Assembly: GCF_944324505.1 (NCBI RefSeq)
Contig: NZ_CALUWO010000007.1
Span: 58,560-122,559, forward strand
Direction: 5' to 3'
From: an uncultured Desulfovibrio sp.
GTDB lineage: Bacteria; Desulfobacterota; Desulfovibrionia; Desulfovibrionales; Desulfovibrionaceae
DNA: 64,000 bases
A program made the position numbers. Each line of letters starts with the position of its first letter. Position 1 is the first letter of the stretch. Positions 43,801 to 46,800 of this stretch are shown here, in pieces.

Positions 43801-46800
43801 AGCGATACCATATATCCGGGGCAGGAGTTTTTCCGCATCATCCACGAGGGGGAGCGGGCCGGGCTGTACAGGGTGGAGGTGCTGGCGACCGGCAAGGAAG
43901 AGGCAACGCTGCTGGGGGCACCCCTCATAGTGAAGGTGGTGGACGATGCAGCAGGGGACGGCAGGGCGCTGGCTATGGAGTGGCTGGACCCCAACGGCAC
44001 ACGGCACACACTCACCTTGCCGGAAAAGATGCTTGGCGGGCGGCGGATCAGGCCCATCGTCAGGCGGATGGTTCGCGGCGGGTGGCGGTGCTTCCTGCTG
44101 GGGAGAGAATCCATATTGATGTTCTCCCGCTTCCTGGTGGCGGCATGGAACACGGAACGGGGGGCGGGCGGCTATGAGTGAAGGCCTGTTCGACGCGGTG
44201 CTTGCCTCCCTTCATGACAGGGGGCGGGACCTTCAAAAAACCTCATGTACACGGCAGGGGGAGCAGCCGCCACAAGGGCATCCATGGCCGGTACTGCACG
44301 AGCTGAACGAGACATACCAGGTGGGGGCCCTGCCTGCCGATGATGGAAACGGGCTGGTACTGTGGCCGGCGGCGGGCCTGCTGCGATCCGAGAAGCTGGA
44401 AGCCCTGCGCTATGCCCGGAACAATATTGAGGCCCTGCTGCATGATCTGGCTCTGGAGCATCTGCCCCGGCAAGTATGGCTGGCTGGACAACAAAAGGAG
44501 GGCGGCGGTGCGCGTGATCATTGATAGCAGGGAGCAGGCCCCCTTTCCCTTCCGGGGGCCGCGCTATGAAGGCGTGACGGTGGAAGTGGGCGGCCTGAGC
44601 GTGGGCGACTATTCCCTTGCCGGACTGACAGACAGGGTGGCGGTGGAACGCAAGAGCCTGCCGGATCTTGTCATGTGCCTGGGCAGGGAGCGGGAACGCT
44701 TTGAACGGGAGCTTGCCAGAGGGGCGGCGCTGGACGCCTTTTGTGTAGTGGTGGAAGCCTCGTGGGCTGATCTGGCCGGTGGGCAGTACCGCAGCAGGAT
44801 GAACCCGCATGCGGCTTGCCAGAGCGTGGCGGCATTTATGGGACGCTACCGCCTGCCCTTCCTCTTTGCCGGAAGCCGCCCCGCCGCCGAATACTGCACA
44901 TGGTCTTTCCTCCGGCAATACCTGGAGGGGGCCCGGAAGAGGTTGGCCGCCATCGTGAAAGCCCATGACGCGGCTTAAAAGTCAACGGCTTGTCAACGGT
45001 GTTGACCTAAAAAAATGAGGGGCTTTGAACGCATGGGGCAACGTGTGCTTTTCAAAAAATGCCCTGTTTGTGGCGGGCTCTGGAGATTTTTTTGTTATGG
45101 GGTGGTGCACGGCGATGATGGTGGAGTCATACGACGTTACTTTCATTGCCGGAAATGCGGTAGCCGCTTGTCGCGTGAATATCGTGAAGAGTGGCGCGTC
45201 GTATCAAGAAAGAAAACAACGTGAAGGAGTTTTGCATATGTCCATGAAACAATGGTGGCAGCAATATCGTCCAGGGGAAGTTGAGAGGGTTCTTGCTCAA
45301 AGCGAGCAACAGAAAGAGGCCGAACAAAATGCCCATATCGGGCAGTATTTTCAGCAGGAAGCGGAACGGCATCGGGCTGAAAATATACGTCAAGCAAAAG
45401 AAGCCGAGGCCATGCGTGCCAAATACGAAGAACGGCGGCGGGGCGGCAAACTAGCGTGGGCGGCCCGCATTCGGGAGACCCCGCAAATGAGGGAAATCCG
45501 CCTTGCCGCCGAAGCCGAATCAGCGAAAAACGCAAAATGAGAAGGAGTACCAAGTATGAAGAGAATAGAATTTGTGAAAGGGCAAGAGTTCCTCGGTATG
45601 CGGCATCCCGTGGCCATTACTTCCCCTGTTGACAACAATGTGACGTTGGTTCCCGTCACCTCCTTGCCGGTGGCCATTAAGCGCCTGGAGTGGCTGGCAA
45701 CTGACATGGTTGAGGCGGGGAACCTCTCCACTGATCTTGTGGCCGTGGTCAACGCCATTGACCTGCTTCGCCAAGAAAGGGAGCGCCGCCGCTCGCGCAG
45801 GCAGCGTGCGCGGGAAAACAGGAGGGCCGCCAAATATGGACAGCGTTAAACATACCGCGAAAAATGGCGCTGGCCGGGATTCCGGCGGGCGTTTTGCCCC
45901 CGGCTGTCATGGAGGGCCGGGCCGCCCAAGGGGGAGCTCAAACAGCCTGCTTGTACAGGCCCGGCAATGGGTGGAGGCGCGGGGCCTGCCCATGATGATA
46001 GAGGCCGCCGAAGGTGGCGACATGGACGCGGCCCGGCTGCTGGTGACGCTGGCCATGCCCAAGGTGAAGCCCGTGGCGCCGCCGCTGGAGTGCTTGAAGG
46101 ACATGCCCATGCCGGAAAGAGACAAGGATCTTGGCCCCGTGGCCGTCTTTCTGCTGGACAAGGTACGCGAGGGGCAGCTTGCCGTGGCCGACGCCGAAGC
46201 CGTCTATGAGATGGCGGCACGGGCCACCACGGCGCAGGGCATCGGCAGGCCGTTCAGGCTTGAACCAATAGAGGTGGACTTTGGATAGCCTGATACCTTC
46301 ATACGCCCAGCCCCGCATCTTGCCGGGCCAGACATGAGGCGCCAAGACCAGGGCCGGGACGCCCTGCAAACGGAAAGACCTGTACGGCAATGGCCGGTGC
46401 AAACTGCATGGCGGGCTCTCCACCGGGCCTAGGACAGAGGAAGGCAAACGGCGCTCCGCTGCCAACGGGAAATGTCCCAAGCGGAAGCGCAGGACGGACA
46501 GGGAAAAGCCAAGTCCATGAGTGGGTGGGAAAAGTTGGTGTTGGCAGCCAGAGGAGCAGGGAGCAAACGCAATACCTGAACGCAAGAGATCAAGGGGCGT
46601 CCAAACTATGGACTCCCTGAGACAGCCCCAGGGGGCAACAACTGGCCGGATGCTATGAAGCGTCCGGCTTTCTTTGTTTCAAGGCTCTACGGGGCCATTG
46701 CGGGCCATGACGGGCGGGGATCATGGCGGACAGCCAGGGGCCGGGGGAGACAATGACCGGCAAGGAGAGAGGATACCCTATGCATACGGTATCCATACCC

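Follow-up and report, generated by a model that had tools for sequence, protein, structure and literature searches.

The window, a 64,000-nt stretch of DNA from an uncultured Desulfovibrio sp. (NCBI RefSeq assembly GCF_944324505.1, contig NZ_CALUWO010000007.1), contains an 11.4-kb island integrated in tRNA-Ser; all window features described here lie on the plus strand. The tRNA-Ser(UGA) itself (35840–35929, identified by ARAGORN; 3' end ...ATCCCTCCCCCTCCGCCA) is the left attachment site, and an attR-like partial repeat of this 3' end, ATCCCTCCCCC-GCCA (47284–47298), marks the right end of the island. The tRNA is followed by a tyrosine integrase (36103–37305; Pfam Arm-DNA-bind_3, Phage_int_M and Phage_integrase), a Toprim-DUF927 primase/helicase (40809–43538; Pfam DUF927, 252 bits; PHROG DNA primase, 338 bits), an ERCC4-type nuclease (44340–44978; Pfam ERCC4, phrog_3490), which stands in the same gene order in D. 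piger, an ORF at 45710–46288 that the D. piger island lacks, and, as the last gene of the island, a small HGGxSTG gene. Pfam and PHROGs give no structural family for any ORF scanned in 36.1–46.5 kb. A tRNA attachment site, an integrase, a DUF927 primase and the lack of capsid, tail and large-terminase genes together fit the gene criteria of a capsid-less phage satellite (P4-like or PICI-like); judged from its genes, the island is satellite-like, and its mobilization or packaging by a helper phage is putative. An earlier note on this DNA had labelled the ORF at 45710–46288 as TerS-like, a label with no significant match behind it: the ORF has no NCBIfam or PHROG match, and its single sub-threshold match is to DUF5681 (21.3 bits; cut-off 27.5). 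Descriptions of the HGGxSTG protein as packaging-associated or as tied to selenium status are speculation.

The HGGxSTG gene (46281–46520; 79 codons, counting the proposed Sec19) opens with a TTG (46281–83) in overlap with the TAG stop (46286–88) of the upstream ORF, and a Shine-Dalgarno-like GAGGTG (46271–46276) stands 4 nt 5' of the TTG. Codon 19, the proposed Sec codon, is TGA (46335–46337); the residues after it are GAKTRAGTPCKRKDLYGNGRCKLHGGLSTGP..., and the frame runs to a TGA stop at 46518–20, with no in-frame ATG, GTG or TTG among the 60 codons downstream of 46335–37. The earlier reading of the start, the GAGGTG, the overlap and a codon-19 TGA without a later start is exact to the base. 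The predicted protein, small and basic, matches the NF041373 (HGG_STG) profile at 68.3 bits (cut-off 29) over profile positions 1–38, with the domain at residues 19–56 (46335–46448) and the pattern U-x9-C-x10-C-x2-H. The TGA aligns with profile position 1, which is the first Cys, and the invariant residues of the family (C/G/R/G/C/R-C/H-G-G/G) are all kept, with U at C1; the proposal that the UGA replaces the first metal ligand fits the invariant C-x9-C-x10-C-x2-H pattern, and the motif presumably binds metal. Gene callers and public records have both missed this gene. A copy of an island-enriched 8-mer, CTTGCCGG (46319–46326), lies within a block before the TGA that is free of synonymous variation; a nucleotide motif, CCAAGTCCATGAGTGGGTGGGAAAAGTTGGTGTT (46512–46545), overlaps the stop codon and is kept across phyla while its reading frame varies; and a terminator-like hairpin followed by a T-run (46644–46669) stands 125 nt 3' of the stop.

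Homologues with TGA at codon 19, a check proposed by the earlier note, do exist. Besides the window genome, the same TGA occurs in D. piger ATCC 29098, in the genomes of two uncultured Desulfovibrio and on 21 contigs from gut metagenomes; all 25 loci of this clade (20 distinct nucleotide sequences) carry it, always in the consensus ...LPGQ[TP]-TGA-GA[KR][TI]RAG. Close homologues with TGC or TGT, which the earlier note had named as a refutation, are thus not what is seen. Outside the clade, TGC or TGT occupies this codon in 78/78 distinct homologues and the Cys column is invariant. The TGA clade, from gut Desulfovibrio, is monophyletic, with one origin (97/92 support), and its sister sequences carry Cys. 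Of 15 billion database proteins, only two are unbroken reading frames from the clade; one carries TGG (Trp) and the other CGA (Arg) in place of the TGA, each on a single short metagenome contig, and no Cys revertant was seen. In all the loci retrieved, neither the second nor the third Cys is replaced by TGA, and the closest relative in IMG/VR has 60% identity. A weak "HGG_STG with 1 TGA" match in another genome (G367), inspected as a second Sec form, turned out to be a degenerate remnant.

Beyond the TGA the frame is under strong purifying selection: in the 50 codons that follow, dN/dS is 0.05–0.15 with dS up to 1.0, and every complete copy has an open frame of 57–66 codons after the TGA, with a frameshift or second stop in 0/23. 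Upstream of the TGA, dN/dS is 0.3–0.5 and every indel comprises whole codons. At least five unrelated N-terminal regions, including one of 128–144 aa, lead in frame into the post-TGA codons. The window copy shares the constraint of the rest of the clade; in the downstream domain, it differs from the clade sequence L054 by dN 0.062 and dS 0.644. Variable sites 3' of the TGA are distributed 7/6/30 over the three codon positions, and this mainly third-position variation argues against an overlapping DNA or RNA function as the cause of downstream conservation. For the same reason, an out-of-frame ATG overlapping the TGA (ATGA, ORF 46334–46432) was rejected as the coding frame.

A candidate apical hairpin of a bacterial SECIS (bSECIS) element, at 46349–46366, begins 11 nt after the TGA. 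Its coordinates agree exactly with those given earlier: CAGGGC (46349–54) pairs with GCCCUG (46361–66) across the loop CGGGAC, forming a 6-bp stem with a 6-nt loop that has G at positions 2–4, and the isolated hairpin folds at about -9.9 to -10.6 kcal/mol. The bSECIS model allows a loop of 3–9 nt, a stem of 4–16 bp, a G among the first two loop nucleotides, a UGA-to-loop spacing of 16–37 nt and an MFE <= -7.5 kcal/mol (PMC13188914). The window hairpin falls inside these limits (loop 6 nt, stem 6 bp, spacing 17 nt, -9.9 kcal/mol), as do eight other distinct TGA sequences (-9.9 kcal/mol), while ten are marginal (-7.0 to -7.3 kcal/mol) and one, L055, is outside. The closing C-G pair is absent in 11/20 TGA sequences (ACC to ACA); its loss leaves 5 bp and -7.0 to -7.3 kcal/mol, just under the model threshold. 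L055 has a synonymous CCC-to-CCA change that disrupts the stem, with no other hairpin found to take its place.

The 5-bp core of the hairpin is intact in 19/20 TGA sequences as compared to 3/78 Cys sequences that encode the same peptide. Covariation, which the earlier note had named as a check, did not appear: there are no compensatory changes across the 20 distinct TGA sequences. Most stem bases are set by the codons of T-R-A-G-T-P-C, and the four stem sites free to change vary little, but not significantly so (rough estimate, about p = 0.18). RNAalifold and single-sequence folds of the region from -30 to +90 around the TGA recover only the 5-bp core and a small stem that contains the UGA, and show no covariation. 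In the window genome, an equally good hairpin of bSECIS geometry follows 4.4% of 4000 random TGA triplets, hairpins that reach -7.0 to -7.5 kcal/mol follow 10–12%, and the 76-nt fold is no better than its shuffles (z = -0.36); given the 4.4% chance level and this z-score, the hairpin alone is weak evidence. The bacterial SECIS geometry claimed earlier stands for the window sequence (-9.9 kcal/mol) and is tempered by a chance rate of 4–12%. An Rfam scan at E-value thresholds reported no SECIS family at the site, nor at the SECIS of the host selD used as a positive control; because the latter also went undetected, no Rfam model catches either kind and the negative is uninformative. Geometry and association with the TGA, rather than covariation, suggest that the 46349–66 hairpin is a SECIS element.

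Selenocysteine machinery, the presence of which the earlier note had asked to be confirmed and whose absence it had named as a refutation, is encoded by the window genome (tRNA-Sec, selA, selB and selD, the last itself with a TGA), and selA is present in 4/4 TGA-bearing genomes. Two host selenoprotein genes, fdhA (C5:22197–25202 of the window genome) and selD (C1:262794–263741), provide a comparison: as in the candidate, an in-frame UGA is followed by a GC-rich stem, which begins 15 nt (fdhA) or 12 nt (selD) after the UGA, and their loops are G-rich, with G first in the apical loop. The candidate hairpin nevertheless looks different, because the host elements have 8-bp stems and GGC triloops whereas it has 5–6 bp and a 6-nt CGGGAC loop. 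All three genes presumably use the same SelB.

Taken together, these observations make it probable, on sequence grounds, that the window TGA gene is a selenoprotein gene in which the first ligand of C-x9-C-x10-C-x2-H is encoded by UGA and read as Sec by means of the hairpin. Translation would start from TTG 46281 by coupling to that of ORF 45710–46288; once UGA 46335–37 reaches the A site, SelB-GTP-Sec-tRNASec would be recruited by the GC-rich hairpin that starts 11 nt further on, selenocysteine would be inserted, and 60 further codons would be read to the true stop, UGA 46518–20, after which no such hairpin was found. The Sec-Cys-Cys-His finger envisaged in the earlier note gains support from the TGA clade, the selection downstream, the Cys homologues and the host Sec machinery; the gene is best described as a well-supported but unproven selenoprotein.

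The identity of the residue inserted at the UGA, most plausibly Sec, is where a competing explanation can be mounted: the UGA could be a leaky or attenuating codon, decoded without SelB by near-cognate read-through (e.g., as Trp) to give little full-length, selenium-free protein, with the hairpin a by-product of the codons. The natural TGG and CGA variants of the clade fit this idea, as does a hairpin that is minimal, lacks covariation, is broken in L055 and has equals behind 4–12% of random TGAs. Yet the position is an invariant Cys in all other homologues, where Trp or Arg would delete a ligand; the host has a complete Sec machinery; the hairpin complementarity follows the TGA (19/20 vs 3/78); and an independent Sec form is predicted in the same family (GOS_A, below). 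Furthermore, a G after UGA does not make it especially prone to read-through. We regard leaky decoding as improbable.

Somewhat less probable again is that the clade encodes a selenoprotein while the window copy is a non-functional recombinant remnant that exchanged its N-terminal domain upon insertion of the DUF5681 gene and makes little or no protein. In the window copy, the conserved N-terminal 40 residues, including a conserved Trp-containing region, have been replaced and an 18-codon leader from the TTG start remains; homology to the D. piger gene starts only about 22 nt 5' of the TGA. Since these 40 residues are lost, the window copy could be less functional than that of D. piger. Its sole available start is TTG with a short SD spacing, and the clade variants L138–141 are likewise without a good start. 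Against a remnant speak the intact downstream domain, with the low dN relative to dS seen in the comparison with L054, and the arrangement of SD, TTG and overlapping upstream stop, which is the usual layout for translational coupling. A plain pseudogene, the alternative that the earlier note had itself raised, would require one base change (TGC/TGT to TGA) inherited by a recently spread element, a chance hairpin of the kind that does arise, and a gene that annotation has passed over, but it is effectively refuted, and very remote, in view of dS of about 1.0 with strong constraint 3' of the TGA, a frame free of lesions and kept through several N-terminal recombinants, and the single origin of the clade.

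The selenoprotein reading is less novel than the earlier note assumed, because the family has already been predicted to contain selenoproteins. In the Global Ocean Sampling data, Zhang and Gladyshev (2008, PLoS Genet 4:e1000095; PMC2398784) predicted a selenoprotein family, "hypothetical protein GOS_A". Among its reads (PMC2398784, Dataset S2), JCVI_READ_1094426031526 scores 64.5 bits against NF041373 over profile positions 1–38 and is 58% identical to the window protein; by these matches, the HGGxSTG family is GOS_A. Both forms have an in-frame TGA in place of a Cys of C-x9-C-x10-C-x2-H and plentiful Cys homologues. However, Sec would occupy the second Cys in GOS_A (CGAKTRSGEP-U, profile position 11) and the first in the window form (U-GAKTRAGTPC, position 1), and since different Cys are involved, the Cys-to-Sec changes would be independent; the Desulfovibrio gene thus adds a form with a new Sec position to a predicted family that was already known. 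GOS_A is known from two marine shotgun reads with no genomic context, whereas for the Desulfovibrio form there are 25 loci, a type strain in culture and a defined setting in a mobile element. The family table of a 2026 review lists GOS_B and GOS_C only, GOS_A not being among them. A literature search found the name "HGGxSTG" in none of the papers covered and no phage-encoded bacterial selenoprotein, and the selenoprotein reviews and papers searched make no mention of phages or mobile elements.

Cys-containing HGGxSTG proteins, e.g., Ppro_3130 of Pelobacter propionicus and the "HGGxSTG domain-containing protein" of Burkholderia multivorans, share with the TGA clade the domain, the N-terminal W...PxxPxxLxGxT region, a position at the end of the co-oriented genes of an integrase-AlpA-primase/helicase island and the conserved nucleotide motif at the stop codon. 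They differ in that TGC or TGT encodes the first ligand and in that 75/78 lack the complementary hairpin core. P2 Ogr and P4 Delta, zinc-finger activators of late genes, are likewise small, Cys-rich, presumed metal-binding proteins encoded by a phage or a satellite; the suggested analogy is a functional one. Their Cys are spaced differently, and the sequences show no relationship, a Pfam scan of the window protein giving only a weak DUF2043 match. AlphaFold2 (50-sequence alignment) models the protein with a mean pLDDT of 73, rising to 81–92 over the knuckle; Foldseek found no match for this model in the PDB (E >= 6.8), and a sequence search of the PDB returned only noise. A nucleic-acid-binding role for the protein at the island end is a guess.

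It is conceivable, though we hold this only tentatively, that the HGGxSTG knuckle takes part in chemistry, as a sensor of metal or redox state, rather than being an inert structural zinc finger, and that the UGA ties the island's terminal protein to host selenium and SelB. An active site of this kind would explain why two ligand Cys have independently turned into Sec (ligand 1 in gut Desulfovibrio, ligand 2 in marine GOS_A). If so, the satellite life cycle, through helper exploitation or through transcription at the motif beside the gene, would be coupled to selenium status. More broadly, the proposed gene would place selenocysteine use on a satellite-like mobile element, and the replacement of Cys by Sec on two separate occasions within 38 residues would be the first functional clue to a widespread uncharacterized domain. 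For D. piger ATCC 29098, type strain of a sulfate reducer prominent in the human gut, and for its relatives, this adds an unannotated gene that likely encodes a selenoprotein; since the strain can be cultivated, the Sec prediction lends itself to a direct test. Gene callers miss this gene systematically, and the clade's only database proteins are the two rare sense-codon variants. HGGxSTG domain genes end integrase-primase islands across Pseudomonadota and Thermodesulfobacteriota.

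The product of the HGGxSTG gene (46281–46520, plus strand) is a well-supported candidate, and probably an actual, selenoprotein: a form of the GOS_A/HGGxSTG family with Sec at a new position and a minimal candidate SECIS element, its gene carried both by a satellite-like island and by a cultivable type strain. The gene begins at a TTG (46281) which follows a Shine-Dalgarno-like GAGGTG (46271–46276, +) and overlaps the TAG stop of the ORF at 45710–46288; codon 19 is an in-frame TGA (46335–46337), translated beyond which the frame reads GAKTRAGTPCKRKDLYGNGRCKLHGGLSTGP... and then a basic tail up to the TGA stop (46518–46520). 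None of the 60 codons 3' of the first TGA is ATG, GTG or TTG. All these features, and the position and sequence of a hairpin beginning 11 nt after the TGA (CAGGGC-CGGGAC-GCCCUG), are as the earlier note described them. The protein matches the 38-position NCBIfam model NF041373 (HGG_STG; cut-off 29 bits) with 68.3 bits, model position 1 being the TGA codon, and the host genome, G000, contains only this copy.

GOS_A reads in Dataset S2 contain ...NRCGAKTRSGEPUAKFLIEGKRRCRLHGGLSTGPKT... (Zhang and Gladyshev, 2008; PMC2398784). With U read as C, GOS_A matches the full NF041373 profile (64.5 bits) and is 58% identical to the window protein, which identifies the HGGxSTG family as GOS_A, already a predicted selenoprotein-containing family. 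In GOS_A, however, the predicted Sec is at the second Cys, whereas the Desulfovibrio clade has it at the first; the clade would represent an independent Cys-to-Sec conversion. The family table of a 2026 review lists only GOS_B (NF041374) and GOS_C, with GOS_A missing, and the name HGGxSTG appears in no paper of the literature searched.

Relatives were sought in three scans: one of genomes across the family, one of 185,579 species genomes and one of metagenomes. Further loci with TGA at the same codon, for which the earlier note proposed a search, were found: with the host copy there are 25, four in genomes (G000, D. piger ATCC 29098 and two uncultured Desulfovibrio) and 21 on contigs mainly from the human gut. 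These amount to 20 distinct nucleotide versions, sharing the invariable context ...R[TI]LPGQ[TP]-TGA-GA[KR][TI]RAG[TM]PC. They form a single clade (support 97/92) whose sister sequences carry Cys; the 78 distinct Cys homologues, from Thermodesulfobacteriota and Pseudomonadota, have TGC or TGT in every case (78/78). The N-terminal 46 residues in D. piger are homologous to Cys-form N-termini, including a conserved Trp and PxxPxxLxGxT, so the TGA lies inside a conserved protein. The D. piger gene is unannotated, since no protein crossing the TGA is on record. Among ~15 billion database sequences, only two whole-ORF proteins of the clade were found, each from one short metagenome contig; the sole clade members reported by gene callers are those of L237:186-497 and L238:134-430, where TGG (Trp) and CGA (Arg), each one transition from TGA and neither encoding Cys, replace the TGA while the hairpin is intact. 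These two variants count against Sec at this codon; they could be rare defective alleles, assembly errors, or an indication that the UGA may be read through without Sec.

Within the clade, the 50 codons 3' of the TGA have a dN/dS of 0.05–0.15 (dS up to 1.0), with variable sites distributed 7/6/30 over codon positions 1/2/3, and 57–66 codons after the TGA are open in 23/23 complete copies. Constraint is weaker upstream (dN/dS 0.3–0.5), where indels are always whole codons, and the TGA lies in frame behind five or more unrelated N-terminal regions, including a 128–144-aa extension. The most strongly selected segment is translatable only via UGA read-through. The G000 copy in particular might be taken for a remnant: the conserved N-terminal region, absent also from the related loci L138–L141, is swapped for an 18-codon leader starting at the TTG, and homology to the D. 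piger gene begins only ~22 nt 5' of the TGA. Its domain, however, is intact and as constrained as in the rest of the clade, which makes a remnant very unlikely and leads us to think that the copy is expressed, through coupling with the ORF upstream. The plain TGC>TGA nonsense mutation that the earlier note gave as its alternative, and a pseudogene in general, are effectively ruled out by the strong protein-level selection and the open frames 3' of the TGA. An out-of-frame start at the ATG of ATGA is excluded as well, because the HGG frame varies mostly at its third codon positions. The N-terminal region is modular, with five or more unrelated upstream sequences meeting the conserved block at ...CTTGCCGGGCCAGACATGA (window 46281–46334 vs L053:2884-3021, a related locus); this pattern suggests that recombination has occurred immediately 5' of the TGA.

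The host (2.21 Mb, Desulfovibrio piger group) has the selenium genes that the earlier note listed for checking: tRNA-Sec (anticodon tca, 81 bits), selA, selB and selD; selA is present in all four TGA-bearing genomes. The host selD (G000 C1:262794-263741, -) and fdhA (C5:22197-25202, +) each contain one in-frame TGA. Both have an 8-bp stem capped by a GGC loop, starting 15 nt after the UGA in fdhA and 12 nt in selD; Rfam models match neither element, and both are useful native SECIS references for the genus.

The UGA-to-stem spacing of the candidate hairpin resembles that of these host elements, but its shape differs (6 bp, CGGGAC loop). [quoted passage not shown] G000 and eight other distinct sequences satisfy it (6-nt loop, 6-bp stem, 17-nt spacing, -9.9 kcal/mol); ten have lost the closing pair (ACC -> ACA) and reach just -7.0 to -7.3 kcal/mol, and L055, another clade member, has a synonymous CCC -> CCA mismatch in the stem, with no replacement hairpin found there. 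No compensatory changes occur across the TGA sequences. The 76-nt fold is no better than shuffles and ~4.4% of random TGA triplets in the 2.2-Mb host genome precede an equally good hairpin of bSECIS geometry, so the hairpin alone is weak evidence. Its 5-bp core is intact in 19/20 TGA vs 3/78 Cys sequences; many Cys forms also encode the TRAGTPC peptide, and the nearest Cys relatives fall 1–2 synonymous differences (CCG, ACA) short of the core. Complementarity thus tracks the TGA, and no comparable hairpin follows the real stop; a SECIS function is plausible.

The HGGxSTG gene is the final gene of an 11.4-kb island bounded by tRNA-Ser (35840–35929) on one side and by a partial copy of that tRNA's 3' end (47284–47298) on the other; this repeat, ATCCCTCCCCC-GCCA, lacks three bases (TCC) present in the tRNA 3' end ATCCCTCCCCCTCCGCCA (35905–35929). 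The island encodes an integrase, HTH proteins, a Toprim-DUF927 primase, an ERCC4 nuclease and a DUF5681-like ORF, with no structural genes found; the D. piger island has the same layout minus the DUF5681 ORF. This ORF, called TerS-like in the earlier note, matches only DUF5681, below threshold, so the label "packaging-associated" is not supported. Cys forms in Pelobacter propionicus, Burkholderia and a metagenome bin (L240, L241, L242) are also the last co-oriented gene, in integrase-AlpA-primase/helicase islands of ~7–8 kb, and the HGGxSTG domain appears to be a marker gene for a widespread type of capsid-less integrative element. An AlphaFold model of the protein is confident over the knuckle only and has no PDB match; C-x9-C-x10-C-x2-H presumably binds metal, and the basic tail nucleic acid.

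The 8-mer CTTGCCGG occurs 25 times in 35744–47743 (both strands counted), one copy (46319–46326) lying just 5' of the TGA in a 26-nt block almost without synonymous variation. Its density is 2.07/kb in the island vs 0.20/kb genome-wide (447 copies, 2.21 Mb), the genome's densest 12-kb stretch lying in the island; related islands L053, L133 and L135 are also enriched (11 copies in 4.3–6.2 kb). The copies show no strand bias and no consensus extending past (C)CTTGCCGG. A ~35-nt motif, AAAAGCnAACCCCATGAGAGGnTGAnAAAACTTGA..TT, overlaps or trails the HGGxSTG stop (window 46512–46545; same site in L023–L163) in Desulfovibrionaceae, Burkholderiales, Zoogloeaceae, Sphingomonadales and other groups. 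Its reading frame relative to the stop varies, so it is a DNA or RNA signal rather than a coding sequence; some copies include a TTGACA-like box. Except for one insertion, the 125-nt stretch that separates the stop from a terminator-like hairpin (46644–46669, followed by a T-run) is conserved in D. piger, and a structured 3' region or small RNA may lie in 46521–46669.
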